64,000 nucleotides of DNA, from positions 2,060 through 66,059 of the forward strand of contig DASXED010000032.1 in the NCBI GenBank assembly GCA_036490295.1, in the 5' to 3' direction. Origin of the DNA: Verrucomicrobiia bacterium (lineage in GTDB: Bacteria > Verrucomicrobiota > Verrucomicrobiia > Limisphaerales > UBA11358). The position numbers and the translations under genes were made by a program. Below are positions 8,059 to 53,468 of the stretch, one piece after another (positions within the stretch are counted from its first letter, which is position 1; each line of letters opens with the position of its first letter). Under the pieces are notes generated by a model that ran no database searches, had not been told where the DNA came from, and saw only the letters and a program-made list of their open reading frames with translations.

Positions 8059-10011
8059 ATGCCAGTCCGTCGCGTCGCCGTGCAGCCGCCAAAACCGCTC
8101 ATGGTTTTTGACGGCGATTGCAATTTCTGCAAATTGTGGATTCGCCGCTGGCGGCAAATCACCGGCAACGCCGTGGATTATCTGCCGTTTCAAGATTCGC
8201 AAATCGCAAACCAATTCCCGGAAATCCCGCGCGAACAATTTCAAACTTCCGTTCAACTCATCGAACCCGGCGGCGAAGTTTTTTGCGGCGCGGAGGCAGT
8301 TTTTCTTTCGCTCGCCAAAAATCCAAAATGGCGATGGCCGTTGCACCTTTACGAAAATTTTCCGGCTTTTGCCAAATTCACGGAACGCGCCTACAAATTT
8401 GTCGCCGGACATCGAACGGGCTTTTCGCGCTTCACGCGATGGTTTTGGGGCAGGCACGTCGAGCAGCCGGATTATTTTCTCACGCGCTGGATTTTTCTGC
8501 ACGCGCTCGGCGCGATTTATCTCGTCGCGTTCATCTCACTTTGGACGCAAATCAGCGGACTCATCGGTCACAACGGCATTTTGCCGACCGATCAATTCAT
8601 TTCCGCCGTCAAACAACAATGCGACACGCAAGGCATCGGCGTGGAACGATTTCATCTGGTGCCAACTTTGTGCTGGTTTGATTCGTCCGACAGTTTTCTA
8701 AATTTCCAATGCGCCGCCGGAATTACTTTTGCAATTCTTTTAATTTTTGGAATCGCACCCGCGCCGTGCCTTGCGCTGCTTTGGCTGATTTATCTTTCAC
8801 TTTCAACTGTGGGTCGCGATTTTCTTGGCTTTCAATGGGACAATCTTTTGCTCGAAGCCGGATTTCTCGGAATTTTTTTCGCGCCACTGCAATTAGTGGC
8901 ACGGGCGTCCCGCCCGTGTGTTTCGGGCGCGGACATTGATCAAAATCAAAAACTCACGGGCGGGACGCCCGTGCCACAATCGCCGCCGCCAAAAATCGTT
9001 CTCTGGCTGCTGCGACTGCTGTTGTTCAAGCTGATTTTTTCTTCCGGCTGCGTGAAACTTTTGAGCGGCGACCCGAACTGGCGCAACCTGACCGCGCTCA
9101 CGTTTCATTATCAAACCCAGCCGCTGCCGACATGGATTGGCTGGTATGCGCAGCAATTGCCGCTGTGGTTTCAAAAATTTTCCTGCGCCGCGATGTTCAT
9201 CATCGAACTCGGCGCACCGTTCCTGATGTTTGCGCCGCGACGAATTCGATTTTTCGGCTGCGCCGCGATTGTCTTTCTGCAAATTCTGATTTTGCTGACC
9301 GGCAATTACACGTTCTTTAATTTTTTGACGATTGCGCTCTGCCTGTTGCTGCTCGACGATTTTATTTTTCAAAAAATTTTGCCGCGAAAATGGTTTGGGC
9401 GTTCTTCAATCAACCCTCAACCCTCAACCCTCGACAAATTCCGCTGGCCGTGCGCAATCATAATTCCGCTCGCGGTCGTCATTCTCTCAATTTCCGTTTT
9501 CCAAATGATTTCGATGTTTGGCGTGCGAAGCGAATTGTTATTTCCAATCGCAGTCGCCGAAGAATGGCTGCAACCGTTTCGCACGGTGAACAATTACGGC
9601 CTGTTCGCCGTGATGACAACGACGCGCAACGAAATCGTCGTCGAAGGCAGCGACGACGGCGTGAACTGGCTGCCTTACGAATTCAAATACAAACCCGGCG
9701 ACATAAATCGGCGGCCACGCTTCATCGAGCCGTTCCAACCGCGATTGGACTGGCAAATGTGGTTTGCCGCGCTGGGAAATGTCCGGCAGAATCCGTGGTT
9801 TGAAAATTTCTGTGAACGGCTGCTGCAAGGTTCGCCGGAAATTCTGGCGTTGCTGGAAAAAAATCCGTTTCCCAAACATCCGCCTCGCTACATTCGCGCG
9901 CAGCTTTATGATTATCACTTCACCACTTTCGCCGAACGCCGCGCGACCGGCGCGTGGTGGAAGCGCGAATTCACCGGCGAATACTTGCCGCCGGTTTCAC
10001 TTCCTGAATAA
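8059..10011 (+). CDS. DCC-family thiol-disulfide oxidoreductase fused to a lipase-maturation-factor (LMF1-like) membrane domain
   Basis: 650-aa ORF. The N-terminus FDGDCNFCKLW is a DUF393/DCC motif. It is followed by a polytopic membrane region and a C-terminus resembling the LMF family (PRFIEPFQPRLDWQMWFAAL). It contains a translated palindromic element. Confidence 0.65.
   Translation: MPVRRVAVQPPKPLMVFDGDCNFCKLWIRRWRQITGNAVDYLPFQDSQIANQFPEIPREQFQTSVQLIEPGGEVFCGAEAVFLSLAKNPKWRWPLHLYENFPAFAKFTERAYKFVAGHRTGFSRFTRWFWGRHVEQPDYFLTRWIFLHALGAIYLVAFISLWTQISGLIGHNGILPTDQFISAVKQQCDTQGIGVERFHLVPTLCWFDSSDSFLNFQCAAGITFAILLIFGIAPAPCLALLWLIYLSLSTVGRDFLGFQWDNLLLEAGFLGIFFAPLQLVARASRPCVSGADIDQNQKLTGGTPVPQSPPPKIVLWLLRLLLFKLIFSSGCVKLLSGDPNWRNLTALTFHYQTQPLPTWIGWYAQQLPLWFQKFSCAAMFIIELGAPFLMFAPRRIRFFGCAAIVFLQILILLTGNYTFFNFLTIALCLLLLDDFIFQKILPRKWFGRSSINPQPSTLDKFRWPCAIIIPLAVVILSISVFQMISMFGVRSELLFPIAVAEEWLQPFRTVNNYGLFAVMTTTRNEIVVEGSDDGVNWLPYEFKYKPGDINRRPRFIEPFQPRLDWQMWFAALGNVRQNPWFENFCERLLQGSPEILALLEKNPFPKHPPRYIRAQLYDYHFTTFAERRATGAWWKREFTGEYLPPVSLPE
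8895..8978. repeat. paired-hairpin palindromic element (GTGGCAC subtype), intragenic and in-frame
   Basis: GTGGCACGGGCGTCCCGCCCGTG (8896-8918) and its exact reverse complement CACGGGCGGGACGCCCGTGCCAC (8955-8977) flank a 36-nt spacer. The element is translated as VARASRPCV...TGGTPVPQ. Confidence 0.85.
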
Positions 10012-19364: not shown

Positions 19365-20312
19365 TTAAATAATCTCTGGATTAAATTTAAGTATTTCCTG
19401 CCAAATCTCTGGTAGCTCGTCTCTAATGTAACTTCCAATTAGAACTCTCCCGCCTGGATTTTCGGACAGCACAGTGCGACAAAGACGAATTTGTTTTAGT
19501 CTTTTTGCCAAATTAAGAAGCTGAATAGTCCATCTGCTAGCATCTTCTTGAATCATCTTCCGAAATTTCTCTGGATCATTTTCAAACTCTGACATCTTCC
19601 TCGTAGCTCTTGGTGAAAGATCAATATGTGCGGAGTTGAAAAGATATGAGCAACCTCGTAGGCGCAATTTAGTTTCCAATGGCGTGAACCAAGCGTTAGG
19701 CGGCGGTCTCCAACTGCGAAAATAGTTCACGAGACGAAATGAAAGTGGCTTTGAATCTATTACTTCGCCGATTGTTCGCTTCCACTCACGGTCTTCGTAA
19801 AATTCAGTATCGGATGGATTAACTGCAAGAGTTAAAACTTCGGCATTTTCTATATCACCAAAAAAAGGAATTGGACACCTCGACCTACATTCACCATATA
19901 GACTGTTAAATTCCTCATCAGTTTCCTCGACCGTATTGATTGTGTTATCTACCAATTCAATAAGTTGATTGCTTGGACTAAACTCCGCGAATACGGACGA
20001 ATTCAAACTTTGCCATTGGCTGTCATCGCACCATGTAATTACTCTTCGAGGAAAAACACTGGACGGATTGTCATCAATAATCACATCCGGTTTCCCAACA
20101 AATCCTGAAAAAAAACCAGCCAGACCATGTTCTACGGCTTTGGAACGAGCATAATCACCGCCAGCTCCAGACCAAAGATACAAATTTGAATCAGGATGTT
20201 CTGCATTCAATTTCAGCCGAATCTGCCGCAGAATTTCTTGAGCGCGCGGATCAACACCTTCATTGCTATTCAGCAATGTTCCGTCCACGTCTATGAAAAT
20301 ATTCATGCTCAT
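19365..20312 (-). CDS. orphan fusion protein: N-terminal HAD-like phosphatase domain plus an unknown domain of about 190 aa
   Basis: 315-aa ORF with a DVDGTL (DxDxT) motif at residues 8-13 and KPDVIIDD later. The C-terminal half has LTLAVNPS and HIDLSPRAT motifs. It is visibly AT-richer than its neighbours. Its ATG overlaps the stop of the murB 3' remnant. Confidence 0.6.
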   Translation of the reverse strand: MSMNIFIDVDGTLLNSNEGVDPRAQEILRQIRLKLNAEHPDSNLYLWSGAGGDYARSKAVEHGLAGFFSGFVGKPDVIIDDNPSSVFPRRVITWCDDSQWQSLNSSVFAEFSPSNQLIELVDNTINTVEETDEEFNSLYGECRSRCPIPFFGDIENAEVLTLAVNPSDTEFYEDREWKRTIGEVIDSKPLSFRLVNYFRSWRPPPNAWFTPLETKLRLRGCSYLFNSAHIDLSPRATRKMSEFENDPEKFRKMIQEDASRWTIQLLNLAKRLKQIRLCRTVLSENPGGRVLIGSYIRDELPEIWQEILKFNPEII

Positions 20313-20415
20313 TCTTCGCCGATAATTTCGACTTCCGTGTGCAATTCAATTCCGCGTTCAGCTTTCGCCTTTGCCTTCAAAATTGAAATCAATTCCAAAA
20401 CGTCGCGCGCCGTCG
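20313..20415 (-). repeat. direct-repeat copy A: diverged duplicate of the murB 3' coding end (remnant)
   Basis: This 103 nt aligns with 21141-21243 with about 8 mismatches. It still reads TARDVLELISILKAKAKAERGIELHTEVEIIGEE-stop. Confidence 0.85.
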
Positions 20416-20438
20416 TCATGTTCAAATTTCGGTTCATG

Positions 20439-20840
20439 TCACTTCACAAATTTTTCCAGCGAGACGGCAATTTTCGGAAACGCGCGCAAAACCTGTTTGT
20501 CCGCCGTCACCAACGGCACGCCCAAATCCTGCGCCAGCGCCACATATTCGCAGTCGTAAGCCGTGCAATCGGATGCCAGCACCAGCTTGATGATCCGCTC
20601 GGTCGGCACGGAATATTCATTCGCGCCCAAATCTTTCTGGACATTCAGATAGGCGGCGTTGGCCTCGGCCTCGGTCAATGTTTGTCTTCGTAAATATCCC
20701 GCCAACACATTCCGAAATTCCGCGCGCCACAAAATTGGCGACGCCCAAACTTTGTCGCGGTCTTTTACGGCTTCCGTTAATTCCGCAAAGTCGCTAGGCA
20801 GCCAGAAATAAACCAGCACGCTGTTGTCCACGACAATCAC
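20439..20840 (-). CDS. vapC: type II toxin VapC (PIN-domain ribonuclease)
   Basis: 133 aa with PIN acidic residues (VVDNS, TAYDCEY, VTADKQ). It overlaps the upstream antitoxin gene by 4 nt. Confidence 0.88.
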   Translation of the reverse strand: MIVVDNSVLVYFWLPSDFAELTEAVKDRDKVWASPILWRAEFRNVLAGYLRRQTLTEAEANAAYLNVQKDLGANEYSVPTERIIKLVLASDCTAYDCEYVALAQDLGVPLVTADKQVLRAFPKIAVSLEKFVK

Positions 20841-21076
20841 GCGCGACCTTCTTCCTTGAAACGTTTCAAATCCGCCGCCGTCACCTTGAACTTGAGCGAA
20901 TTGCGGAACTGGCGCGCCCGCTGAATGATTCCCTCGGCCTCGACCGGCACGCTGCGGACGCTGGATTCCAAAACAGCAATGGCTTCGCTGTTCAAACTCC
21001 GGCGGTGTTCTGCCGCGCGTTTTTTTAATTCACGGTGCGTTTCTTTCGGAATGCCTTTAAGAGTCATTGTTATCAT
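20837..21076 (-). CDS. vapB: type II antitoxin, Arc/FitA-like ribbon-helix-helix (VapB)
   Basis: 79 aa. MTLKGIPKETHRELKKRAAEHRRSLNSEAIAVLE is typical of the FitA/VapB RHH N-terminus. Confidence 0.8.
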   Translation of the reverse strand: MITMTLKGIPKETHRELKKRAAEHRRSLNSEAIAVLESSVRSVPVEAEGIIQRARQFRNSLKFKVTAADLKRFKEEGRA

Positions 21077-21133: not shown

Positions 21134-22087
21134 TTAATTGTCTTCGCCGACGATTTCGACTTCCGTGTGCAATTCGATTCCGCGTTCGGCTTTCGCCTTG
21201 GTCTTCAAGATTGAAATCAATTCCAAAATGTCGCGCGCCGTCGCCTTGCCGTCGTTCACGATGAAATTGCCATGTTCGGCGGAAACCACCGCGCCGCCCA
21301 CACGCGCGCCCTTCAATCCCAGTTCGTCCACCAGCCGGCCCGCCGGGATCGCGCCGGGATTTTTGAAGATGCAACCCGCGCTCGGCGCCGCCGGCTGCGA
21401 TCCCCAGCGCTTCTCGTTGAACGCCTTCATGCGCCGCTCGATCTCCGCGCGCGGCAAAGTCCGGCATCGGAAAACCGCGCCCAGCGCGATGTGATTCTTC
21501 AACGCCGCGCAACTGCGATAATCCACGGACATTTGTTTTGGTGACATTTCAGAAATGTTGCCGTCAAAATCCATCACGCGCACCGACTCGACGACATCGA
21601 ACGTCGCGCCGCCCATCGCTCCCGCGTTCATCCGCAACGCACCGCCGACGCTGCCGGGAATGCCTTCGAGAAATTCCACGCCGCTCAAATTGTTCCGCTT
21701 CGCCTCGACCGAGACATTCTTCAATTTCGCGCCCGCGCCGCAAAAAATTTGCTCTCCAACAATTTCAATCTTGCTGAAATGCGATTGCGACAAACAAATC
21801 ACCACACCGCGAAAACCACCGTCGCGCACGAGCAGATTCGAGCCGCGCCCGAGAATGAAAAATTTGATTCCGTTTTCACTGCAAAACTTCACGATGTTCG
21901 CCAAATCATCTTCGTTCGCCGGCTCGACATAAATATCCGCCGGCCCACCGACGCGCAACGTCGTGTGCTTTGCCATCGGCTCGTCGCGACGAACCATCGT
22001 CGCGCGCGAAACGCGCCCGGCAATTTCATCCGCGATATTTTTCTCAATTCGCATCGGATTTTTCAAAATGTCAGTCGTCAGCGTCAT
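21134..22087 (-). CDS. murB: UDP-N-acetylenolpyruvoylglucosamine reductase
   Basis: 317 aa with an FAD-binding domain (HTTLRVGGPADIYVEP, GRGSNLLV) and a C-terminal MurB domain. Confidence 0.93.
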   Translation of the reverse strand: MTLTTDILKNPMRIEKNIADEIAGRVSRATMVRRDEPMAKHTTLRVGGPADIYVEPANEDDLANIVKFCSENGIKFFILGRGSNLLVRDGGFRGVVICLSQSHFSKIEIVGEQIFCGAGAKLKNVSVEAKRNNLSGVEFLEGIPGSVGGALRMNAGAMGGATFDVVESVRVMDFDGNISEMSPKQMSVDYRSCAALKNHIALGAVFRCRTLPRAEIERRMKAFNEKRWGSQPAAPSAGCIFKNPGAIPAGRLVDELGLKGARVGGAVVSAEHGNFIVNDGKATARDILELISILKTKAKAERGIELHTEVEIVGEDN

Positions 22088-23307
22088 GCGGCGGAAAATT
22101 TCTGTCGTTCCGTCACGTCGGAGCGTGAACGGTTTCCACGTTGGAGTTCAGGCTTCAGCCTGTTCTTTTCCGGCAAGCTAAAGCTTGAACTCCAACATAC
22201 GGCCAAAATATTTTCCGCAATCTGTTCCGCTGCCTTTGGCGCGTGCCACTGCGCGAGCGCGGCTTGCATTTTCTCGCGTGCAGACGAATCTTCAATCAAT
22301 TGGCTCAAAATTGCCGCGACTTTTTCGGGCGTGGAATTTTTTTGTTGGAGCAATTTTGCCGCGCCGTTTTTTTCAAAAGCGCGCGCGTTGAAGAATTGAT
22401 GGTTGTCCGCCGCCGCCGGATACGGCACGAGCAGCGCCGGCAGCGGCATGGCCGCGATTTCCGCCAGCGACGATGCGCCGGCGCGGCTGACGGAAACCGT
22501 CGCCGCGCCAAGCGCCAAATCCATTTCGGCAAGAAATGGTTTTACAACGGCCTTGATTCTGGCAGCGACATAAGCTGATTTTACTTTTTCAAAATCGTTC
22601 GGGCCGGTGAGATGAAGCCATTGCCAGCTTTTTCCAGCGAGCAATGGCAGCGCGGACAAAATCATTTCATTAAGGCCGCTCGCGCCCTGACTTCCGCCCA
22701 TGACCAGAATCGTCGGCAAATTCGGATCGAGTCCGATAGTGGCGCGGGCATCCTGCCCGCGATTCGCAGGCGAGACGCCTGCGCCACTAAAAAATTGCGG
22801 GCGAACCGGCGTTCCCGTCACAGAAACTTTGCGCGCTTTCAATCTCGCTGCGGCCTCGGGAAACCCGACGAACGCCTCGCCGACGAAGCGCGAAAGAAAA
22901 CGGTTGGCCTTGCCGGGAATAGTGTTGGATTCGTGCAAAAAAGTTTTCGCGCCGATTTTCCGCGCGGCGAGAATCGGCGGCGCAGAGGTAAATCCACCCA
23001 TTGCAAGAACAGCATCGGGTTTGCACTGTTTGAAAATTTTCCGCGACGCGCAAAATGAATTCCAAAAGCTTTTAGCGAAGGAAAAATAATTACGGTTTTG
23101 CAATCCAACCGCCGGAAGCGTGAAGATTTCAAAGCCTTGCGCGGATTTGACGGCCTGTTGATCCACGTCTTTTGGCGAGATGAGCAGCGCAACTTCGCAG
23201 CCGCGCTTTTTTAATTCTCCGGCGACGGCGAGTCCCGGAAAAAGATGCCCGCCCGTTCCGCCGCAGGCGATGGCGACGAAGGGTTTTTTAATTTCAGAAG
23301 CGGTCAT
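22084..23307 (-). CDS. murG: UDP-N-acetylglucosamine--LPS/lipid I N-acetylglucosamine transferase MurG
   Basis: 407 aa with GGTGGHLFPGLAVA and GGSQGA. It carries two translated palindromic elements. There is a 4-nt ATGA overlap with murB. Confidence 0.92.
   Translation of the reverse strand: MTASEIKKPFVAIACGGTGGHLFPGLAVAGELKKRGCEVALLISPKDVDQQAVKSAQGFEIFTLPAVGLQNRNYFSFAKSFWNSFCASRKIFKQCKPDAVLAMGGFTSAPPILAARKIGAKTFLHESNTIPGKANRFLSRFVGEAFVGFPEAAARLKARKVSVTGTPVRPQFFSGAGVSPANRGQDARATIGLDPNLPTILVMGGSQGASGLNEMILSALPLLAGKSWQWLHLTGPNDFEKVKSAYVAARIKAVVKPFLAEMDLALGAATVSVSRAGASSLAEIAAMPLPALLVPYPAAADNHQFFNARAFEKNGAAKLLQQKNSTPEKVAAILSQLIEDSSAREKMQAALAQWHAPKAAEQIAENILAVCWSSSFSLPEKNRLKPELQRGNRSRSDVTERQKFSAA
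22140..22196. repeat. paired-hairpin palindromic element (GTTGGAG subtype) in the murG 3' tail
   Basis: GTTGGAGTTCAGGCTTCAGCCTGTTC is followed by GGCAAGCTAAAGCTTGAACTCCAAC. It has inverted termini and each arm can form a hairpin. Confidence 0.7.
22738..22788. repeat. paired-hairpin palindromic element (GTGGCGC subtype), intragenic in murG
   Basis: AGTGGCGCGGGCATCCTGCCCGCG, ATTC, then GCAGGCGAGACGCCTGCGCCACT. It is 51 nt long and translated as SGAGVSPANRGQDARAT. Confidence 0.8.
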
Positions 23308-27000: not shown

Positions 27001-28470
27001 TTATTTTTCAGTTTTTAATGTTTCCGCAATCCGTTCCAGCCGCGACGCCCGCGACGCCTTCAACAAAACCACGTCGCCTGTTTTCAAAAACTTTCTGATC
27101 ACCGTCACCGCCGCCTCGACATTTTCAAATTCAATCACCCGGTTTAATCCGCCATCACGCGCCGCTTTTGCCGTTACCGCCGCCATTTTTCCGACCGCGA
27201 ACAATTGCCCGATTTTCAATTCCGCCGCGCGTCTACCGACTTCCGCATGCGCCGACTCGCTGTGCGCGCCGAGTTCTGCCATGTCGCCGAGAACCGCCAC
27301 GCGCCGCCCTTGCAACGGCAGATCGCACAAAGTTTCCAGCGCGGCAATCGTCGAATCCGCGTTCGCGTTGTAGGCGTCGTCCAAAATGCGCACGCCGTTC
27401 GCTTCCCAAAATTGCAGCCGCATTTTCGGCGGCTTGCACTCGGCCAGACCGCTCTGAATTTCAGCGCGACTCAAATCAAGTTCCTCGCCGACTGCAATCG
27501 CAAACAAAGCATTCGTCACCTGATGGCGACCGAGCAAATTAATCCGATACTCGCCGCAAAAATCTTGTAGTGGCACGGGCGTCTCGCCCGTGAGTTCATT
27601 CAGACTGCCGACGTTTTCAGAAACACACGGGCGAGACGCCCGTGCCACTACCCGGAACGTCACACCATTTTTATCCAATCGAATTTTGTCCGCGCGCCAG
27701 TCGTTTTTTTCGCCGAGTCCAACGCGGACAATTTTCGCTTTCGTCCGCTGAACAATTTTTTCTGTCCATTCGTTGTCGCCGTTCACAAAAAGTTTTCCGT
27801 CCGACGGCAAAAGTTCCGCAAGCCAGCCTTCTTCCTGCACGACTCCGACAACGTCGCCAAAAAATTCCAGATGCTCACGCCCGACATTCGTCAGCACGCC
27901 GAACTTTGGCTGGATCATTTTCACCAACGGCGCGAGTTCACCCGGATGATTCGTTCCCGCTTCCAACACAGCGACTTGATGCGATTTTTCCAGTCGCAAC
28001 AAAGTCAGCGGCACGCCGATATCATTATTAAAACTCGCCTCGCTTGCCAGCGTCGAAAATTTCTGGCGCAAAACTGACGCGAGCAATTCTTTCACCGTCG
28101 TCTTGCCGTTCGAGCCGCCGACGCAAACAATTGGCAAATCAAATTGCGTTCGATAAGCCGCCGCCAATTTTCCCAGCGCGATTCTTGGGTCATCAACAAT
28201 CAATAGTGGCACGGGCATCTTGCCCGTGAGTTTTTCATCAACGCACGGGCGGGACGCCCGTGCCACTACGATTGCCGCAACATTTTTCGCCGAGACTTCA
28301 TTCAAGAAATCGTGGCCGTCGAATTTTTCGCCGCGAATGGCAAAGAACAAATCACCTGCTTTTGCCTGACGTGAATCGGTGCAAACATTTTTCACCAAAA
28401 CTTCAGCCGCGCCGCGACGGATTTCAGCGGCGCAGGCTTCGGCGACAAATTTCAAAGAGCGTTCTTCCAC
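27001..28470 (-). CDS. murF: UDP-N-acetylmuramoyl-tripeptide--D-alanyl-D-alanine ligase
   Basis: 489 aa with TDSRQAKAGDLFFAIRGEKFDGHDF and GSNGKTT. It contains two translated palindromic elements. Confidence 0.92.
   Translation of the reverse strand: MEERSLKFVAEACAAEIRRGAAEVLVKNVCTDSRQAKAGDLFFAIRGEKFDGHDFLNEVSAKNVAAIVVARASRPCVDEKLTGKMPVPLLIVDDPRIALGKLAAAYRTQFDLPIVCVGGSNGKTTVKELLASVLRQKFSTLASEASFNNDIGVPLTLLRLEKSHQVAVLEAGTNHPGELAPLVKMIQPKFGVLTNVGREHLEFFGDVVGVVQEEGWLAELLPSDGKLFVNGDNEWTEKIVQRTKAKIVRVGLGEKNDWRADKIRLDKNGVTFRVVARASRPCVSENVGSLNELTGETPVPLQDFCGEYRINLLGRHQVTNALFAIAVGEELDLSRAEIQSGLAECKPPKMRLQFWEANGVRILDDAYNANADSTIAALETLCDLPLQGRRVAVLGDMAELGAHSESAHAEVGRRAAELKIGQLFAVGKMAAVTAKAARDGGLNRVIEFENVEAAVTVIRKFLKTGDVVLLKASRASRLERIAETLKTEK
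27569..27649. repeat. paired-hairpin palindromic element (GTGGCAC subtype), intragenic in murF
   Basis: GTGGCACGGGCGTCTCGCCCGTG (27570-27592) and its exact reverse complement (27626-27648). The AGTGG-to-CCACT span is 81 nt. It is translated on the minus strand as VARASRPCVSENVGSLNELTGETPVPL. Confidence 0.85.
28205..28267. repeat. paired-hairpin palindromic element (GTGGCAC subtype), intragenic in murF
   Basis: GTGGCACGGGCATCTTGCCCGTG (28206-28228) and CACGGGCGGGACGCCCGTGCCAC (28244-28266). It is 63 nt long and translated as VARASRPCVDEKLTGKMPVPL. Confidence 0.85.
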
Positions 28471-30848: not shown

Positions 30849-30936
30849 AGTGGCACGGGCGTCTCGCCCGTGAGTTTCAAATTTTCTGTGTGCATCGGCT
30901 TCACTCGCAACGCACGGGCGGGACGCCCGTGCCACT
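30849..30936. repeat. paired-hairpin palindromic element (GTGGCAC subtype), intergenic ftsL-rsmH
   Basis: GTGGCACGGGCGTCTCGCCCGTG (30850-30872) and CACGGGCGGGACGCCCGTGCCAC (30913-30935). The right terminus overlaps the rsmH stop codon (cta at 30935-30937). Confidence 0.85.
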
Positions 30937-31876
30937 ATGCACGTTCAATTTTCTCCAAAATTCTCAACTGCGCGCTGCGGCTGCGCGGATTTTCCTGCAA
31001 TTCTTTTTCTCCGGGCAAAATTGCCTTACGATTCACCCATTTCATTTCCGGCGCGCGCGGCTGTCGCAATTCCGGCACGTCCACTTCGCCGCTGAACGTG
31101 TAATCTCGCGTTTTTTCGCGGCCAAAATCTTTCACGATGCGATCTTCGAGCGAATGAAACGTGATGACCGCCAATCGTCCGCCTGGTTTCAAAATTTTCA
31201 CCGCTGCTTCCAGCCCGCGTTTCAAAGAACCGATTTCGTCGTTCACCGCGATCCGCAGCGCTTGAAAAACTTTTGTCGCCGGATGCGATTTTTTTCCGTG
31301 GCGCGGCGCAAGCCGCTCGATCAATTCCGCCAACTGCTTCGTCGTCTCAAATTTTCGCTGCGCGCGGTCGTGGACAATTGCCTTTGCAAATCTTCGCGAC
31401 TCGCGCTCACCGCCAAATTCCCAAAAAATCTTCGCCAGTTCCTCGGCACTCAAATCGTTCACCAAATCCGCCGCCATCAGTTTTTGCCGGTCGTCCATCC
31501 GCATATCGAGCGGGCCATCGTTCTGAAAACTGAACCCGCGTTCCGCCGAATCCAGTTGCGGCGAACTTACGCCCAAATCCAAAATCACGCCGTCACAACT
31601 TTTTTCCGCAATCCAATCCGCCATTTCCGAAAAATTTCCGCGCCGGATTTCAAAACGTCCGGCGAATTTTTCGGCGAGCCGTTTCTGCGCGGCTTCAACC
31701 GCGACGCCATCGCGATCGCACCCAGACAGCCATCCAGTCGGCGAACTCGCCGCCAGAATGCTCGCGGCGTGACCAGCTCCACCGAGCGTGCCGTCGGCGT
31801 AGCGGCCGCCCGGCCTCGGCTTCAGCGCGTCCAACACCTCCGCCGCCATCACTGGTTTGTGAATGAATTCTGGCAC
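30935..31876 (-). CDS. rsmH: 16S rRNA (cytosine1402-N4)-methyltransferase
   Basis: 313 aa with HKPVM, DGTLGGAGHA, DLGVSSPQLD and FHSLEDRIVK. Confidence 0.94.
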   Translation of the reverse strand: MPEFIHKPVMAAEVLDALKPRPGGRYADGTLGGAGHAASILAASSPTGWLSGCDRDGVAVEAAQKRLAEKFAGRFEIRRGNFSEMADWIAEKSCDGVILDLGVSSPQLDSAERGFSFQNDGPLDMRMDDRQKLMAADLVNDLSAEELAKIFWEFGGERESRRFAKAIVHDRAQRKFETTKQLAELIERLAPRHGKKSHPATKVFQALRIAVNDEIGSLKRGLEAAVKILKPGGRLAVITFHSLEDRIVKDFGREKTRDYTFSGEVDVPELRQPRAPEMKWVNRKAILPGEKELQENPRSRSAQLRILEKIERA

Positions 31877-44620: not shown

Positions 44621-44985
44621 GTCAGCACTGCCAGGCGCGGCATATTTGTGGGATTGAAATTAAAAACGGATCAAGCTGCGGAGCAGCGGAAGAAAGTAGC
44701 CTACGGTGTCAACCGTGGGATTTGAGCATCAAAAAATCAAGCTCCGGCAGGAGCGGCAGAAAAATTGCCGTGAAATTATATTTATTCTTTCGCCCCGTCC
44801 GGGGCTTGCGCCGTTCCGGCGATTGACCCACGGTTTCACCGTGGGCTACTTTCGGACGCGCCTTCCGGCGCTGAAAACAGCACCGTCAGGTGCGGCATAT
44901 TTGTAGAATGGAATCCCAATGACGAATAAAGCTCCGTAGGAGCGGAATCGGCGGCGGAAGATGCCGCTCCTACGGAGCTTTGGTT
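44621..44985. repeat. cluster of REP-like hairpin units (several subtypes)
   Basis: Direct repeats gca(c)ygyCAGGYGCGGCATATTTGT at 44625 and 44879. Hairpins gctgc-gga-gcagc, gctcc-ggca-ggagc and gctcc-gta-ggagc. An inverted pair GTAGCCTACGGTGTCAACCGTGGG / CCCACGGTTTCACCGTGGGCTAC. A perfect inverted pair aagctccgtaggagcgg / ccgctcctacggagctt. Confidence 0.75.
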
Positions 44986-45437
44986 TTGGGTGGCGCGGGG
45001 GCTACACCGCCGTAGCCCAAGCCGTTCAAGCCTCCTGCTGCCGCGCCAATGGTTGCACCGGCTGTCAAACCACCCATTGCTCCACCCCAGCCAGCATAAA
45101 GAGAATCATGCAAGGCGGACGGGTCTGCTTTGCCGACGTAAAGAATGTTCGCTTGAAGAATATAAAAGGCGTCCTGCGGATTAGAGACAAGTGCGTAACC
45201 GTTGGCTTCAAGTTTTTGTTTGAGAAGCGCCTCAATGCTGACGTCTTTGTCCGACGTGTTTTTAACTTGAACAAAAATGGTGTTGGTCTGACGTTTTTCA
45301 ACGTCGAGGAAAACGGTTGCCGACATTTTGGTCTGCACGTCGAGGTCTTTGTGTTCAAGAGCGACTTCAGTAGCGGCACAGCCCGCAAGAAGTGGGAGCA
45401 TAAGAAATGCGGACAATGTTTTGAGAATTGTTTTCAT
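44970..45437 (-). CDS. traT: TraT-like surface-exclusion/complement-resistance lipoprotein, C-terminally truncated
   Basis: 155 aa with the lipobox LLAGC. The sequence LEHKDLDVQTKMSATVFLD...IFVQVKNTSDKDVS...YILQANILY parallels enterobacterial TraT as I remember it. The stop codon lies inside a repeat unit. Confidence 0.7.
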   Translation of the reverse strand: MKTILKTLSAFLMLPLLAGCAATEVALEHKDLDVQTKMSATVFLDVEKRQTNTIFVQVKNTSDKDVSIEALLKQKLEANGYALVSNPQDAFYILQANILYVGKADPSALHDSLYAGWGGAMGGLTAGATIGAAAGGLNGLGYGGVAPAPPKTKAP

Positions 45438-45450
45438 ATTCGTGCAAGGT

Positions 45451-45711
45451 TCACTTTTGATATTCCTTCATCTTTTCGGCCATTTTAGTTGCCATCAATT
45501 CAGCGTGCCGTTCCAGCATTTCTCGCTTGTAAGTGAATCCGGCATGGCCGACAGCCAACGCCCAAAATACGACGCCAACTATGAAGAGAACGATAGTGGC
45601 CGCGAAAAGAACTGCCATGCCATAAAGTATTGAATTGAGAATGAAGCCGCCCCATTTCTTGCGAGCCAAAAAATAGACGGGTGGAGCGAAGATTATGCAG
45701 AGATACATCAT
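45451..45711 (-). CDS. small two-TM membrane protein (possibly superinfection-immunity-like)
   Basis: 86 aa, ending 13 nt upstream of the traT-like gene. The pattern FAPPVYFLARKKWGGFILNSIL weakly recalls the Imm superinfection family. Confidence 0.45.
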   Translation of the reverse strand: MMYLCIIFAPPVYFLARKKWGGFILNSILYGMAVLFAATIVLFIVGVVFWALAVGHAGFTYKREMLERHAELMATKMAEKMKEYQK

Positions 45712-45827
45712 ACAATTGCCTTTCTTTTTTGATTATTGGTTATGCCAACAAGTCTGCCTGATTAACGCTGGCTATACTTGACCATAGCAAAGTAACTGTC
45801 AAGCAAAAAGTTTGCAATGCTTCATAT

Positions 45828-46079
45828 GTGCCTGACATTGGACAATATGAAGCTATTCGCGCAGAAATCGTGCGGCTTTTGCGGAAAGAGCGTGAACGCC
45901 GGAAACTTTCAAAATATGTAATATCGCAGCGTTCCGGCGTGTCTCAATCAATGTTGAGCTTGGTTGAACGCGGACTTCGCAATCCAACGATGGAACTTAT
46001 GCTTCGGATTGCCGATGGCGTTGGAGCCGATTTGCCGACGCTCATCAAAAAGGCGCAAGGCGCAAAAAAGAAGTGCTAA
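45828..46079 (+). CDS. XRE-family helix-turn-helix transcriptional regulator
   Basis: 83 aa with an HTH (LSKYVISQRSGVSQSMLSLVERGLRNPTMELMLRIADGVG). It is divergent from the membrane-protein/TraT pair. Confidence 0.8.
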   Translation: MPDIGQYEAIRAEIVRLLRKERERRKLSKYVISQRSGVSQSMLSLVERGLRNPTMELMLRIADGVGADLPTLIKKAQGAKKKC

Positions 46080-46111
46080 ATATTATTTCAAGAAATTTCG
46101 CAAGTTTTCAT

Positions 46112-46189
46112 AATTCCAAAGTTTCACAAGGCACATCCTGCGCGGCGAGCTGGAGCCGGATACGCGTCGCGCTGATGCGGTGATTCTTC
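46112..46189 (-). repeat. direct-repeat copy: diverged duplicate of the MBL-hydrolase gene 3' coding end (remnant)
   Basis: It aligns with 46723-46800 with about 6-8 mismatches. It still reads HRISATRIRLQLAAQDVPCETLEL-stop, against HHIGATHVRLQLAAQDVPCETLEL-stop in the intact gene. Confidence 0.85.
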
Positions 46190-46192
46190 ATT

Positions 46193-46447
46193 TCACCGAT
46201 AAACTTCCCGGCGATGTCGCACGCGATGCACGCGCACCACGCGGATGACATCCGCTATTTCGTAAATCACGCGATAGTCGCCGACGCGAATGCGCCAGTC
46301 GTTTTCTGTTCCTGCAAGTTTCCGGCAGCCAGATGGCCGTGGATTCTGCGCGAGCTTTTGAATTGCAGTGATGATGCGGTCGTGAAGGTCGTGCGCGAGC
46401 CGTCCCAAATCCTTTTCGGCGGAGCGTTCGAGCAGGATTTTATACAC
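46193..46447 (-). CDS. relE: type II toxin, RelE/ParE family
   Basis: 84 aa. WRIRVGDYRVIYEIADVIRVVRVHRVRHRREVY is a classic RelE/ParE C-terminus. It overlaps the antitoxin gene by 8 nt. Confidence 0.86.
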   Translation of the reverse strand: MYKILLERSAEKDLGRLAHDLHDRIITAIQKLAQNPRPSGCRKLAGTENDWRIRVGDYRVIYEIADVIRVVRVHRVRHRREVYR

Positions 46448-46643
46448 GTTCGGATTTTTGCTCCGTCAAATAATCCGCCAGCGGGCGGTAACGCAGCGGT
46501 TTCCGGCGCGCTTGCTTGAGCCACGCAACGTCATCGGCGTCTTCCGCGCGCTCGATCAATTCCTCGTAATCCTTGATCGGCAAAATCACAGACACGGGCT
46601 TGCCTTTGCGGGTCACGATTTCTGGTTCGGCTAAAATTGACAT
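46440..46643 (-). CDS. phd: type II antitoxin, Phd/YefM-like
   Basis: 67 aa. The N-terminus IVTRKGKPVSVILPIKDYEELIE is typical of Phd/YefM-type antitoxins. Confidence 0.78.
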   Translation of the reverse strand: MSILAEPEIVTRKGKPVSVILPIKDYEELIERAEDADDVAWLKQARRKPLRYRPLADYLTEQKSERV

Positions 46644-46718
46644 GATGTTAAATTACTTTTCAATTTCCATCGTTTCGCCGCCGTTGCCAAGTTATTTTTG
46701 CGGCCAAAACAATTTCAT

Positions 46719-47555
46719 TCACAATTCCAAAGTTTCACAAGGCACATCCTGCGCGGCAAGCTGGAGCCGGACGTGCGTCGCGCCGATGTGATGGAGCTGC
46801 TCGGCCATGACGTGTTGCGCGAGTTCGGGCTTGTTGCATTCGCGGCTCAAGTGGGCGAGGTAAAGATATTTCAATTCCGCAGACATGATTTGCGCGGCGG
46901 CCTCGGCGGCGGCCACGTTCGAGAGATGGCCGTGGCGTCCGAGGATGCGCTGCTTGAGCGGCCACGCGCGGCGCGGACAATCCTGCAGCATCTTCACGTC
47001 GTGGTTGGATTCGAGGACGAGGACGTTCGCGGCGCGGATGCGATCCAACACGAGCTTGGTGGTGTGGCCAAGGTCGGTGGCAAAACCAATGTTGCCGCGC
47101 GCGGTGCGCAAAAGAAATCCGACGGGGTCTTGCGCGTCGTGCGGGATGGAAAAGGTTTCGATGAGAATGTCGGCGATTTCAAAACTGCCGCCGGTGGTGA
47201 ACAACTGCCAGTCGATTTTGGATTTGAACGTGTCGGCGGCTTCGAGGGCGAGATTGGTTTTCTTGCTCCATTTGTTTTTGAAGGTCCAGATGGTGGCGTC
47301 CTGTGTGTCGCGGTTGCAATAGACAGGGATGTGAAATTTGTCGGCGATGCCGAGCAGCCCGGCGATGTGGTCGCTGTGTTCGTGCGTAATTAAAATTGCC
47401 GTCAGATTTTCCGGCGTCCGTCCGATTGAAGCGAGGCGCGTGCGGATTTGGCGCGGGGAAAATCCCGCGTCAATCAGAACGCGGCAGTTTTCGGTTTCGA
47501 CATAGGCGCAATTGCCGGACGAACCGCTGCCGAGGATGGTGAATTTGACGGACAC
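46719..47555 (-). CDS. MBL-fold metallo-hydrolase (YycJ-like)
   Basis: 278 aa with ILGSGSSGN and the HEHSDH metal motif. Confidence 0.88.
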   Translation of the reverse strand: MSVKFTILGSGSSGNCAYVETENCRVLIDAGFSPRQIRTRLASIGRTPENLTAILITHEHSDHIAGLLGIADKFHIPVYCNRDTQDATIWTFKNKWSKKTNLALEAADTFKSKIDWQLFTTGGSFEIADILIETFSIPHDAQDPVGFLLRTARGNIGFATDLGHTTKLVLDRIRAANVLVLESNHDVKMLQDCPRRAWPLKQRILGRHGHLSNVAAAEAAAQIMSAELKYLYLAHLSRECNKPELAQHVMAEQLHHIGATHVRLQLAAQDVPCETLEL

Positions 47556-47689
47556 AAAAGGAAATTAAAGCGGAAAGCGGAAAGCGGAAAGCGGAAAACG
47601 CGCGGGCAAACATTTTTCACCGTAGAGGAGCGGAGAAAATCAGTTTGCGCGGAATTTGACGGCTGGCGCGAAGTCTGCGAAAATACGGC

Positions 47690-50600
47690 GTGATTCAGAC
47701 CGGCGCGTTCAAATTTCAACGATTGTTTTTTGCGGCAGGCATTGTTGCCGCGCTGTTTTTTTCATCCGGCGCGTCGGCGCAAACGTCGTCGAGGAAATTT
47801 TTGCGCGGCCACGTGCCGTCGGCGATTGCGAATTTCAATTTGCAACCGGTTGAACGTCTGCCCGCGACGAACAGCCTGAACCTGGCCATCGGCCTGCCGT
47901 TGAGAAACCGGGACGCGCTGGACAAACTGCTCCGGGAAATTTACGACCCGGCGAGTCCGAATTTTCATCATTACCTGACGCCGGAGGAATTCACGGAAAA
48001 TTTTGGCCCGACGGAAAATGATTACCAGCGGGTCATTGATTTTGCAGAAGCCAATGGCTTGAAAGTGACGCGCACCTATCCGAATCGCGTCGTGCTGGAT
48101 GTGAACGGCCCGGTCACCAGCATTGAAAAGGCGTTTCAAGTGAACATGAATGTTTACCAGCATCCGACAAAAAACCGCACATTCTTCGCGCCGGATGTGG
48201 AGCCGTCGGTGGATTCGGATGTTCCGATACTGGACATCAGCGGCTTGAATAATTTTGCGCCGCCACATCCGAATTTGCAGCCGAAGCCGATGAATCAGTT
48301 GGCGAATGTCACGGCCAAGTCGGGTTCGGGACCGTTCGGCAATTACTGGGGAAATGATTTCAGAAGCGCCTATGTGCCGGACACTTCGCTCGCCGGTTAC
48401 GGGCAGGCACTGGGCTTGCTGGAATTTGACGGCTTTTATTCCAACGACATTGTGTCTTACGAAAACCAGTCGGGGCTGCCGGTGGTTCCGTTGCAAACGA
48501 ATTTATTGGACGCAGTCAGCGGAAGTCCTGGGTTCAGCGGAATTGCCAACGCGGTGGTCGAAGTGTCGCTGGATATTGAAGTGGCGGTTGCGATGGCGCC
48601 GGGCTTGTCGAAAGTGATCATTTATGAAGGCGCGGCTGCAAACGACATATTAAGCCAGATGGCCAGCGACAATCAGGCCAAGCAATTGAGCACTTCCTGG
48701 AGCTGGGACACGACCACCAACGCGACGACGGATCAGTTGTTTCAACAATTTGCGGCGCAAGGGCAATCGTTCTTCGACGCTTCCGGCGACAGCGATGCTT
48801 ATCCCGCCGGCACCGCCACCGGCGAGCCGAATGACAATCCTTACATAACAATTGTCGGCGGCACAACCTTGACGACGAGCGGTGAATCATGGTCGTCGGA
48901 AACCGCGTGGAACTGGGGTTTTGTTTCGAGCGCTGGCGCTGACATTGGCACCAGCGGCGGAGTCAGCACCTTTTACAAAATTCCAAGCTGGCAGACAAAC
49001 GCCAATCCCGCCGCCGCTGGCGGTTCGGCGGTGAAACGAAACATTCCGGACGTGGCGCTGACCGCCGACAACGTCTGGGTCATTTACGGCAACGGCCAGA
49101 TTGCCTCGGTTGGCGGCACGAGCATCGCCACGCCGCTTTGGGCGGGATTCACCGCATTGGTCAACGAGCAATCCGTCTCGGCGGGCAGGTCAACGGTCGG
49201 TTTCATCAACCCGGCCATTTACGCAATCGCCGCCGGGACAAATTACGCCGCCGATTTTCACGACATCACGACCGGCAACAACACGAACAGCGCCAGCCCG
49301 GCCAAATTTTTCGCCGGCGCCGGCTACGACCTTTGCACCGGCTTGGGAACGCCTGCCGGACAAAATCTGATCACCGGCCTGGCCGGGCCGCCCGATCCGC
49401 TGGGAATCACGCCGGCAGCCGACTTTGCCGCGAGCGGGCCGATTGGCGGCCCGTTTAGCGCGACGAACTGGAATTTTTCACTGACCAATTTGGGAACGGC
49501 TTCATTGAATTGGACGCTGGCCAGCACGACATCGTGGCTTCAGGCCTCGTCGTCCGGCGGCGCGCTGTCGCCCGGCGATCCTGCAACCACGATCACGGTG
49601 AGTTTGAATGCCGCCGCCAATAATCTGCCCGTGGGAATTTACAACGCGACCATTTGGTTCACCAATCAAACGAGCGGCGTCGTGCAAAGCCGCCATTTCA
49701 CATTGCAGGCAATTCAGCCGCTGGCCGTTTCGCCGGCAACGGGCTTTGCCGCCGTCGGCGCGGTAGGCGGGCCGTTCAACGTGACGTCGCAAGACTTTTC
49801 ATTGACCAACATCGGCGGTGCGACGCTGAATTGGGGCGTCATCAACACGTCGCTTTGGCTCAATGCCGCGTCCAGCGGCGGCACATTGACGCCGGGTGGA
49901 AACGACATGGTCACGGTGAGCTTAAATTCTGCGGCCAACAATCTGGCTGCGGGAATTTACAACGCGACGATATGGTTCACCAATCAGACGGCGGGCGGCG
50001 CGCAGGCCGAGCAGTTTCAATTGCTGGTGGGGCAGCCGCTGGTTCAAAACGGCGGATTTGAAACCGGCGATTTCACCGGCTGGACGCTGGTCGGTGACGG
50101 CGGAAACATCAACTTCGTCACCGGTTCATTTCGCATTGCCCGCAACGACAATTTCACGCCTCATTCCGGCAACTATGCCGCCGCGCTGGGCGAACCTTCC
50201 ACGCTCGCCTACCTTTCCCAGACGCTGCCGACGGTTGCCGGCCAGCTTTATTTGATTTCCTTGTGGATGGACAGTCCCGACGGCCAGACGCCAAACGAAT
50301 TCAGCGTGAGTTGGAATGGAAACACGCTTTTCGATCTCGTGAACGCGGGAAAACTCGGCTGGACCAATCTGCAATTCACAGTCAAGGCCACCGATTCCAG
50401 CGCCGTCCTTCAATTCGGCGCGAGCGACTACTCAACTTATCTCGGCCTCGATGACGTCAGCGTGACGCCCATTTCAGCGCCAACATTGACCGTGCAGCCA
50501 ACCAACCTGACCGTGTTCGCCGGCAGCAACGCCGTTTTCAGCGCGACGGCCAATGGTTCCGCGCCGCTGGTTTATCATTGGCGCAAAAACGGCGCGAACC

Positions 50601-52046: not shown

Positions 52047-53468
52047 GTGACCGATTTGCTCCAGCGCGTCGAAAATTCAATCCAAGATCGCAAACTGCTA
52101 AAACGCGGACAAAAAATCCTCGTCGCCGTTTCCGGCGGACTGGACTCGATGGTTTTGCTTCACGCGCTGGAAAAACTTTCCGCGCGGCACAAATGGAAAA
52201 TTGCCATCGCGCATTTCAATCACAAATTGCGCGGACGCGCCAGCGACGCGGATGAAAAGCTCGTCCGCAAAACGGCGGCGGCGATGAAGCTGCCGATTAC
52301 CGCTGAAAGCGCAGATGTGAAATTATTCGCCAAAAAATCAAAGCTTTCAATCGAAATGGCCGCGCGAAAACTGCGCCATGAATTTTTCGTGCGCGCCGCG
52401 CGGGAAAGAAAAATTCAAACCATTGCGCTGGCGCATCACGCGGACGATCAAATCGAACTTTTTTTCCTGCGGCTTTTGCGCGGCGCGGGCGGCGAAGGTT
52501 TGGCGGGAATGAAATGGGAGTCGCCGTCGCCCACCGACAAAACAATTGCACTCGTCCGCCCGCTGCTGGATTTTTCAAAAAACGAACTGGCGGAATTCGC
52601 GCGGAAAAACAAAATCCATTTCCGGGACGACTTGACGAATTTTTCCACCGATTTTTTGCGAAACAGGATTCGTAACGAATTGTTGCCGCTGCTGCGAAAA
52701 GATTATCAGCCGGGTTTGAACAAAACAATTTTACGCGTGATGGAAATCACCGGCGCGGAATCGGAATTTGCTGGCGCAGTGGCACGGGCGGGACGCCCGT
52801 GCGTTTCAAAAAACCGGCCACGCGTGGAATTGGAAACACACGGGCGGGACGCCCGTGCCACTGCGTTTGATTTTGAAAAATCGCCCGTTGCGGTTCAGCG
52901 GCGCGTTTTGCAATCGCAACTTGCGGAACTTGGCGTGATTGCGGATTTTGAATTGGTTGAACAGCTTCGAGAGACTTCTGAAAAATTTGTGAGCGTCGGT
53001 TCCGGCTTGTCCGTTTCGCGTGACAAGAGCGGCAAATTGAAATTGCGAAAACAGCAATCGGCGGAATTTAACACGCAAGAACTTGAATTGAACCTGTCCG
53101 GCGGAGCGCGCGGCGTGGATTTTGGCGGCATGAAATTAAATTGGCGTTTTATCAGCGGCTCGCGGGGACGCTCGCCCCGCCAAATCGGGCGCGAACTTTT
53201 TGACGCGGATAAAATCGGGAACAAAATCATTTTACGCCACTGGCGCGCGGGCGACCGTTTTCAGCCGATTGGTTTGAAATCGGCAGTGAAGTTGCAGGAT
53301 TTGTTCACGAATGCAAAAATTCCACGCGAACGGCGTCGTGAATTGATTTTGGCGGAAATCATTCGCGGCGAAATTTTTTGGGTGGAAGGTTTGCGGATTT
53401 CCGAAAATTTCAAAATCACGCCGCAGACGAAACGGCGTTTGATTTGGTGTTGGCAAACTCAAGGTTAA
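52047..53468 (+). CDS. tilS: tRNA(Ile)-lysidine synthase
   Basis: It has the PP-loop motif VAVSGGLDS. The start is tentatively placed at the GTG at 52047. The ORF stays open back to 51969, across a GC-rich hairpin region at 51985-52025. It contains a translated palindromic element. Confidence 0.85.
   Translation: MTDLLQRVENSIQDRKLLKRGQKILVAVSGGLDSMVLLHALEKLSARHKWKIAIAHFNHKLRGRASDADEKLVRKTAAAMKLPITAESADVKLFAKKSKLSIEMAARKLRHEFFVRAARERKIQTIALAHHADDQIELFFLRLLRGAGGEGLAGMKWESPSPTDKTIALVRPLLDFSKNELAEFARKNKIHFRDDLTNFSTDFLRNRIRNELLPLLRKDYQPGLNKTILRVMEITGAESEFAGAVARAGRPCVSKNRPRVELETHGRDARATAFDFEKSPVAVQRRVLQSQLAELGVIADFELVEQLRETSEKFVSVGSGLSVSRDKSGKLKLRKQQSAEFNTQELELNLSGGARGVDFGGMKLNWRFISGSRGRSPRQIGRELFDADKIGNKIILRHWRAGDRFQPIGLKSAVKLQDLFTNAKIPRERRRELILAEIIRGEIFWVEGLRISENFKITPQTKRRLIWCWQTQG
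52778..52862. repeat. paired-hairpin palindromic element (GTGGCAC subtype), intragenic in tilS
   Basis: GTGGCACGGGCGGGACGCCCGTG (52779-52801) and CACGGGCGGGACGCCCGTGCCAC (52839-52861). It is translated as VARAGRPCV...THGRDARAT. Confidence 0.85.

Follow-up and report, generated by a model that had tools for sequence, protein, structure and literature searches.

A 64,000-nucleotide stretch of the genome of a Verrucomicrobiia bacterium (contig DASXED010000032.1, positions 2,060 to 66,059; the window hereafter) carries, behind the gene of an MBL-fold hydrolase, a small predicted toxin-antitoxin (TA) cassette, phd-parE, bracketed by a direct repeat of the 3' end of the hydrolase gene. Gene-end repeats of this type are a recurrent insertion footprint of TA cassettes, present behind unrelated genes, in other genomes and around other cassette families. 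The repeat is read here, with a probability of about 55%, as the trace left by a minimal phd-parE cassette that inserted additively, with no recombinase, after the end of a conserved gene.

The repeat of the window comprises positions 46107-46182 and 46718-46793, 76 nt of which 68 are identical (89%), with a start-to-start spacing of 611 and a perfect block of 34 nt inside it. A gapped alignment stretches it to ~80 nt, to about 46186 and 46797, the weaker inner end included. The initial annotation had placed these copies at 46112-46189 and 46723-46800 and assigned them to the last ~25 codons and stop of the hydrolase gene; repeat search and alignment agree, with coordinates within 5 nt and the last 25 codons plus the stop, and the peptide strings quoted for remnant and intact gene are both correct. 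The functional copy, R1 (46718..46797, reverse strand like all features of this locus), holds 25-26 terminal codons, the TGA stop (46719-46721) and 1 further nt. Its peptide HHIGATHVRLQLAAQDVPCETLEL is the family consensus, and the C-terminus HHIGATHVRLQLAAQDVPCETLEL or a near variant is found throughout 120 orthologues. The other copy, R2 (46107..46186), is a dead remnant of the gene end in which the stop codon is kept. The repeat thereby extends 1 base beyond the MBL stop codon, and its opposite limit is 6-9 nt away from the toxin stop. The repeated sequence is a stretch of conserved coding sequence and not a dispersed repeat (>30 bp, two copies in the window), no third copy exists across the 64 kb, and it does not belong to a larger segmental duplication, an outcome that the initial annotation had named as one that would speak against insertion. 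The matching repeat in the relative L008 has an E-value of 4e-23 against 4 kb of downstream sequence, which excludes chance.

Between R1 and R2 lie 534 nt (~540 nt in the first estimate) that encode the phd and parE genes and nothing else. The antitoxin gene (46440..46643; 67 amino acids (aa); Phd/YefM family, PF02604 PhdYeFM, 31.8 bits for a cut-off of 29.8) comes first and overlaps by 8 nt the co-directional toxin gene (46193..46447; 84 aa, GTG start; RelE/ParE superfamily, PF05016 ParE_toxin, 52.1 bits for a cut-off of 23). The latter had been called relE and is better written as a member of the RelE/ParE family: its 1799 homologues at E <= 1e-25 bear the source names RelE/StbE or RelE/ParE. 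Judged by gene-level criteria, the pair would be a type II TA system of the Phd/YefM + RelE/ParE kind. Upstream of it, a leader with an A-tract and CTTGGCAAC (46644..46699) is the presumed promoter/operator region; a simple sigma-70 scan of the cassette strand gave no strong match to a promoter there.

The MBL-fold hydrolase gene itself (46719..47555, 278 aa; Pfam Lactamase_B_2, 2e-24, and Lactamase_B) is the anchor whose 3' end was duplicated. It has 120 orthologues at 82-100% identity in metagenome-assembled genomes of Verrucomicrobiae and Limisphaerales, labelled 'phosphoribosyl 1,2-cyclic phosphodiesterase' by JGI, and the genes around it are housekeeping genes. No integrase or transposase gene was found among the open reading frames (ORFs) scanned at the MBL locus and at a second locus of the window, murB, described below (immediate neighbours, ~6 kb on each side, the ftsZ side of the division and cell wall cluster excepted). 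An integron-type context is not apparent at the MBL cassette, with no integrase nearby and flanks that are copies of coding sequence. Identity as a transposon, insertion sequence or miniature inverted-repeat transposable element was rejected: terminal inverted repeats do not bracket 46189-46717, and direct repeats of 45-224 nt are not a short target duplication of fixed length.

R2 behaves as a neutrally decaying pseudogene fragment. The changes in the remnant had been described as conservative at the protein level, an appearance that has no significance and is no evidence of constraint: the residues affected (HHIGATH) hardly vary among the 120 orthologues, and sister lineages bear different changes. 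The same insertion with the same junction (a 77-nt repeat) exists in three lineages, namely the window, L008/L153 and L163/L164. The L008 remnant has the changes I>F, V>M and T>A, and that of L163 a 6-nt deletion with several substitutions. When changes are polarised against the consensus of relatives with an empty site, the R2 branches of the window and L008 accumulate 7 non-synonymous and 3 synonymous codon changes and the R1 branches 1 and 3-4, so that R2 evolves near the synonymous-site rate, roughly 9% per lineage. The insertion of the window is an old event. A function for R2 was considered and discarded: the 47-aa ORF that spans it matches no family, its predicted RNA fold is no better than that of shuffled sequences (z = 0.66), and no convincing terminator or promoter signal is present on the cassette strand. 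Being dead DNA, R2 deserves annotation neither as a gene nor as a regulatory element. In L008 (5111-5369) and L153 (3074-3332) parE is frameshifted and the antitoxin gene intact. This is the usual pattern of erosion, and these genomes display toxin erosion in a sister lineage of the same insertion.

The end of the MBL gene was the target of insertion three times independently. Among 80 metagenome loci with an orthologous gene (L001-L080), cassette and remnant are both absent in ~75. At the same gene end, L020 has a 72-aa protein and a YafQ-family toxin followed by a 58-nt remnant (94.5%), and L006 a 2.3-kb insert followed by a 126-nt remnant at about 91-94%, the three genes of which code for a GNAT protein, a 328-aa protein and a weakly AbiEii-like protein. 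The three insertions have repeats of different lengths, 77, 58 and 126 nt. In L008 the remnant and the DNA downstream of it reproduce the uninterrupted arrangement of L035, L052 and L074, and in L006 that of L032. The L008 insertion has a true empty site: in L035, L052 and L074 the MBL stop codon is directly followed by the same intergenic sequence, with no cassette or remnant, and by the same 257-aa gene in L052 and L074, where the contig extends that far. The suggestion that the layout is recurrent and no coincidence is thus borne out at a single gene, and so are the empty sites whose absence would have spoken against it.

Immediately after its stop codon, the MBL gene is followed by different DNA in nearly every relative, and none of the ~75 cassette-free relatives matches the downstream flank of the window. 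A conserved reading frame beginning right behind the MBL stop is common to more distant relatives. Between L008 and L052 the body of the MBL gene is 80% identical and the downstream gene 90.5%, which identifies the stop codon as a recombination boundary. Because the downstream flank is hypervariable from this codon, homology between two genomes is available on one side only.

The independent exchange of the downstream region would also be compatible with a reversed sequence of events, in which the cassette is resident and the downstream DNA incoming, the remnant being the left end of a fragment joined behind the cassette; recombinants that delete the addictive TA pair would die. The sequence product is identical to that of cassette insertion. 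Such a history requires that a rare illegitimate event occurred and that the incoming block was also selected for, and the order of three gene-end copies in L143 (see below) fits more simply with incoming blocks of gene end plus cassette. We regard it as extremely unlikely.

The layout extends well beyond the MBL gene. A toxin scan with one genome per species yielded 80 loci with homologous Phd-ParE cassettes (48-95% identity), mostly from Verrucomicrobia, with delta-proteobacteria, Chloroflexi, cyanobacteria and others. Direct repeats of >= 45 nt within 500 nt on either side flank 17 of the 57 cassettes with enough flanking sequence and only 3 of 173 control windows of equal size shifted within the same loci (Fisher p = 4e-9). 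In 13 of these 17 the upstream copy is the last 45-224 nt of a co-directional upstream gene, and the repeat ends no more than ~30 nt from the stop codon of that gene, often within 5 nt. Dispersed repeats are involved in a few of the 17 positives (L118, L123 and the multi-hit loci L104, L128 and L129), a caveat to this count. At least 12 unrelated target genes were counted, including MBL, murB, dnaJ, uvrB and hisH, the last identified by its sequence and a GATase match. Others are thiC (four genomes) and genes for a cytochrome c, a DUF1501 protein, an AAA ATPase, a class I (Glu/Gln) tRNA synthetase, a type IIG restriction-modification (RM) enzyme, an ABC ATPase and a molybdopterin enzyme. dnaJ (L152) and uvrB (L126) lie downstream of their cassettes, and there the repeat consists of their 5' ends. 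The same layout is found around the HicBA (L126), MazEF (L160, L110) and DUF433/DUF5615 (L143) cassettes. In L143 a DUF433/DUF5615 pair and a phd-parE pair lie between three copies of the thiC end (2116-2171, 3109-3164 and 3778-3832), the middle one with a 64-nt insertion. The newer cassette adjoins the intact gene and the older one is distal, an arrangement that looks like the step-wise growth of a TA island.

Two observations concern particular loci of this set. The RM enzyme gene with a duplicated end of 224 nt (L130, 182-3202 and 3780-4003) is Eco57I/MmeI-like. In loci L167-L170 of the P0239 population, one and the same phd-parE cassette lies behind a large S8 peptidase gene, with or without an extra gene pair (97 and 81 aa). 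This extra pair was examined as an instance of the same footprint and set aside, since it is flanked by dispersed copies of a GGCGTCCCGCC hairpin and by no gene end. DUF4160/DUF2442 pairs occur further along L167-L170, forming a small polymorphic island of two-gene modules.

The second locus of the window with this layout belongs to an unrelated TA family, as the initial annotation had reported. The 3' end of murB (21134..22087, reverse strand as are all features named here) is present as a functional copy at 21141..21248 and recurs at 20313..20420, 108 nt at 91% identity. Between the copies lies a vapBC-type cassette (20439..21076) with genes for a FitA-like ribbon-helix-helix antitoxin (20837..21076, PF22513) and a PIN toxin (20439..20840, PF01850), within the cell-division cluster murG-murB-[vapBC]-HAD-like-ddl-ftsQ-ftsA. 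The last letters of the remnant are GAATGA, of which ATGA is shared with the start of the next gene (HAD-like, 19365..20312), for which reason the remnant looks like the original end of murB. The 315-aa product of this next gene, between murB and ddl, is HAD-like in its N-terminus only, with a Pfam match just under the cut-off, and the gene may itself be an older insert.

At MBL and murB, two unrelated loci of one genome, the junctions are tight on both sides. These and the related inserts are compact units that run from the presumed promoter to the stop codon. The window cassette is 86-90% identical to copies located behind hisH in L089, L161, L162 and L165 and to one in L166, a short contig in which the upstream gene is not visible. 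By blastn against these five loci, the part common to the MBL and hisH sites is a unit of 511 nt (46189..46699), from the leader, kept in the hisH-site copies, to 4 nt past the toxin stop. At hisH this unit begins at the stop codon. In the window an 18-nt spacer (46700..46717) separates it from the MBL stop codon, the homology with the hisH sites beginning at 46699. The hisH remnant directly follows the toxin gene in L089 and L165 (47-49 nt) and comes after an extra adh_short gene in L161. Across the cassette family the distance from toxin stop to remnant is 2-9 nt in half of the cases. A conserved leader acting as recombination site was considered and rejected: leaders of the family span 10 to 320 nt and are mostly unrelated, only those of the window, the hisH sites and L020 being alike. 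The window leader (46644-46717) and that of the YafQ-type cassette of L020 (2390-2456) have 31 of 42 identical positions, a score not reached in any of 2000 shuffles; a promoter module may be shuffled between cassettes with unrelated genes.

At two target genes, insertions share one junction and differ in the other. The four thiC loci have a constant left junction (stop codon and antitoxin ATG ~20 nt apart) and four different remnant boundaries, and at hisH the left junction is likewise constant and the right one variable (L089/L165 and L161). Of the two explanations offered initially, a recurrent insertion mechanism or a recurrent decay outcome, the former is supported and the latter, as decay of a larger element, is not, given that no mobility genes were found in the scanned ORFs nearby, that inserts are tight from promoter to stop and that junctions differ between events at one gene.

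These junctions also bear on whether the repeats are the attL and attR sites of a site-specific integrative element that uses gene 3' ends, with an integrase acting in trans or as the survivor of a decayed island. Elements integrating at 3' ends are known to leave a displaced, allele-like gene end, differences of synonymous type would also result, and the window repeat does contain an identical core of 34 nt. An integrase could be encoded elsewhere in the genome, none having been found in or near either window locus among the scanned ORFs. This origin is nevertheless very unlikely, since a 534-nt insert leaves no room for arm sites, the unrelated targets of a single cassette family number at least 12, events at one gene have different repeat boundaries (77, 58 and 126 nt at MBL, four at thiC) and both junctions are tight at the two unrelated loci of the window.

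The differences between the two copies of a repeat provide information on their origin. In 14 events with an upstream copy in a clear reading frame, they are distributed over codon positions 1, 2 and 3 in the ratio 32:27:89 (chi-square p = 4e-11). The pooled ratio of non-synonymous to synonymous differences per site (pN/pS) is 0.21. A duplication in situ, in which one copy is neutral and the other constrained, would lead to about 0.55 or more, a value that the data reject (binomial p = 5e-9). In L090, 13 differences are synonymous and 2 non-synonymous (pS 0.44) and the remnant has no frameshift; L105, L125, L130 and L086 show a like pattern, with many third-position and few other differences. 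L081 has no difference in 90 coding nt and 5 in 31 non-coding nt (p = 9e-4). Outside the window event, the two copies thus often look like two diverged functional alleles: the differences, mostly synonymous, suggest that the remnants derive from a different, functional allele and were joined recently. Alleles of two genomes standing side by side are what homology-facilitated illegitimate recombination (HFIR) would leave, and it is in these other loci that they are seen, the window event giving no such signal. When R1 and R2 were compared with the 3' ends of 80 relatives, by nearest neighbour, and with the closest gene bodies, informative sites were too few to tell which copy is foreign.

The main alternative to be weighed against these data is a long target duplication in situ. 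Nicks staggered by 50-200 nt, or the ends of two chromosome copies, would be joined with a free cassette captured by end joining, the overhangs being filled; the two copies would first be identical and R2 would then decay. RM insertions are classically read in this way. The window itself agrees with this scheme, its reconstructed ancestral R2 being the consensus and the changes of R2 looking neutral (7:3 against 1:3-4 in R1), repeat lengths vary as in the RM cases discussed below, and the presence of the same 511-nt unit behind two unrelated genes, each with its own repeat, calls for a step independent of homology. As a general explanation it is rather unlikely: it does not account for the pooled pN/pS, for the wealth of third-position and scarcity of other differences in L090, L105, L125 and L130, for differences confined to the non-coding part in L081, or for the constant left and varying right junctions of thiC and hisH, and it leaves unexplained why the repeat ends at the stop codon.

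In the preferred reading, insertion guided by homology on one side, a segment from a related genome would bear the last 50-200 nt of a conserved gene joined to the cassette. The shared gene end would serve as homologous anchor that pairs the segment with the resident gene. On the far side, without homology because the DNA downstream of the gene is hypervariable, an illegitimate joint would connect the end of the cassette with the resident strand where the pairing begins. The product would consist of a complete gene end (R1), the cassette, the displaced resident end (R2) and the native downstream DNA. The repeat would end at the stop codon because the homology between donor and recipient ends there. 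The TA pair would be retained for being addictive or selfish, and R2, functionless, would decay. Both the mechanism of recombination and the side from which the DNA came are what we infer from the footprints. The same scheme accounts for the inheritance of the left junction and variability of the right one and for the allele-like copies, and it fits L143, where new cassettes would land beside the intact gene and push older ones outward.

Such a process would be a form of HFIR, reportedly described by de Vries and Wackernagel and by Prudhomme et al., both in 2002. As in HFIR during transformation or conjugation, one homologous anchor is combined with an illegitimate joint on the opposite side, foreign DNA comes to lie beside a conserved gene and no dedicated recombinase takes part. 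Unlike HFIR as it is commonly described, the anchor is duplicated here and nothing is lost, so the link between HFIR and these footprints, drawn from sequence comparison, is a putative one. A case is available from E. coli (PMC3240628).

Integration of a circularised fragment by a single crossover would be topologically equivalent. In a Campbell-type version of this idea, a small circle, either a circularised linear fragment or a cassette looped out by recombination of its flanking repeats, would bring a single gene-end copy into another strain and integrate there in the corresponding gene, in a virus-like cycle of the kind proposed for RM units by Kobayashi's group (PMC2853133). It leads to the same product and predicts allele-type differences as well, and repeats of 45-224 nt are long enough for RecA-type recombination. 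Circles that loop out would preserve the junction, however, while the junctions of thiC, hisH and MBL differ between genomes, and the window repeats are only 89% identical. No circle or empty-site joint within 45400-47700 was found in the contigs of four soil and peat runs (X1, X2, X3 and X5), an uninformative result because contigs break inside the repeats; a joint in X5 that 'goes back 608' was discarded, since it stems from a 90%-identical relative whose remnant aligns better to the R1 of the window. Circle integration is on balance unlikely.

Several points weigh against homology-anchored insertion. The 511-nt unit occurs with the same ends behind MBL and hisH, and homology-anchored transfer cannot explain that primary move between unrelated genes. 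Fragment ends formed at random would not place the right end of half of the cassettes 2-9 nt after the toxin stop; a trimming ratchet over serial imprecise transfers may have produced this position. HFIR events described so far usually delete recipient DNA and do not duplicate the anchor. No trio of donor, recipient and product was found, and neither natural competence nor end-joining enzymes are established for these uncultured Verrucomicrobia. A later homologous replacement of the gene 3' end could mimic the allele signature. Finally, the ancestral R2 reconstructed for the window is identical to the R1 consensus and carries no allele signal, so that the window event, taken alone, fits duplication in situ equally well. 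The shared ends could instead signify that the cassettes move as units with fixed termini of their own, here 511 nt between the A-tract/CTTGGCAAC leader and the fourth nucleotide after the toxin stop, which a machinery of the host or of another element, acting in trans, would insert at stop codons with long, variable target duplications; this reading seems improbable. If true, it would define a new class of non-autonomous element common to TA and RM modules.

The closest precedent is the 'insertion with long target duplication' of RM units (Nobusato et al. 2000, Gene 259:99; Furuta, Abe and Kobayashi 2010, PMC2853133). There the repeats measure 30 to several hundred bp, are present as a single copy in genomes with an empty site and often span a translation start or stop, which keeps the target gene intact; cleavage by the RM enzyme is the mechanism at which the authors guessed (PMC2853133). 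The window locus resembles these cases as a small unit of addiction type, without mobility genes, between long direct repeats of variable length. By the definition of Furuta et al. (2010), its insert is shorter than 20 kb and contains a complete addiction module with no mobility genes in the scanned ORFs, its repeat exceeds 30 bp, and an empty site exists for the L008 copy of the same insertion. The cargo is here a type II TA pair, Phd + RelE/ParE, and not an RM unit, which makes the locus a variant of long target duplication and not a member as first defined. Unlike the RM cases, the copies are often allele-like, which directs attention to recombination between genomes and away from cleavage by a nuclease of the cargo itself. 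Reviews of RM and TA systems (2013) and of TA systems (2009) assign or cite this mode for RM only. Belot et al. (2026; September 2026), on the acquisition of TA systems, describe the mechanisms as poorly characterised and propose transposon-linked routes, with long target duplication unmentioned. Our literature search, which did not extend to Pandey and Gerdes (2005) and Ramisetty and Santhosh (2016), found no report of the gene-end-repeat layout around TA cassettes.

Other systems share part of these features. Integrative elements at the 3' ends of tRNA or protein genes (attL/attR) and their integrase-less derivatives (CIMEs) also provide a new 3' end that preserves the target and displace an allele-like copy to the far end; unlike them, the footprints described here lack a conserved core, vary in their boundaries at one gene, occur at many unrelated targets and enclose an insert of only ~0.5 kb, and, in comparison with attL/attR elements, show no integrase gene among the scanned flanking ORFs. 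Minimal mobile elements of Neisseria (Saunders and Snyder 2002, cited in PMC3787668) are small cassettes, often TA or RM, located between conserved genes. They are similarly exchanged by recombination of the flanks without mobility genes, but with homology on both sides and no duplicated gene end, whereas one conserved flank and a remnant are found here. IS1634/IS1630-type insertion sequences of Mycoplasma also generate long direct repeats of variable length at the insertion site (PMC2853133); their duplications depend on a transposase acting on inverted-repeat ends, and the phd-parE cassette has neither.

Further sequence elements were noted around the loci of the window. Just 5' of the MBL start codon, the heptamer AAAGCGG is repeated four times (47567-47594); the very high contig depth of this segment in soil and peat runs identifies it as a common simple repeat. 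Downstream of R2 lie genes for a TraT-like lipoprotein (44970-45437), an 86-aa membrane protein (45451-45711) and, convergent, an XRE-type helix-turn-helix protein (45828-46079), a block found in none of the 80 related loci and thus specific to the lineage of the window. A second dispersed intergenic element occupies the variable region 3' of the MBL gene (44623-44658, 44739-44774 and 44878-44913, with an inverted repeat at 44928-44981) and is also found downstream in L006 and L008, as the spurious ORF 'MPLLRSFGFGWRGG'. A hairpin resembling repetitive extragenic palindromes, ACACACGGGCGGGACGCCCGTGCCACT, has six copies in the window (8943-8980, 22753-22790, 27614-27651, 28232-28269, 30901-30938 and 52827-52864), and a related element, GGCGTCCCGCC...GGCGGGACGCC, sits between small gene pairs in L168.

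The question to which these footprints speak is how chromosomal TA cassettes enter core-genome positions without transposases or integrases, a process still poorly characterised (Belot et al. 2026). The remnants form a readable footprint: they mark where the joint lies and how far the inserted unit extends, and their decay provides a neutral clock. Synonymous differences between copies are evidence that the event joined DNA of two genomes, and this allele signature points to a homology-anchored spread of TA cassettes that requires no recombinase. If one-sided homology with an illegitimate joint is indeed the route, it would explain how TA pairs pile up beside conserved genes as 'TA islands', as in L143, would connect the mobility of TA systems with the long target duplications of RM units, which lack an explanation, and could easily be tested in the laboratory with any transformable bacterium. 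The window itself yields a modest practical message, the main interest lying in a footprint pattern that is common and can be dated.

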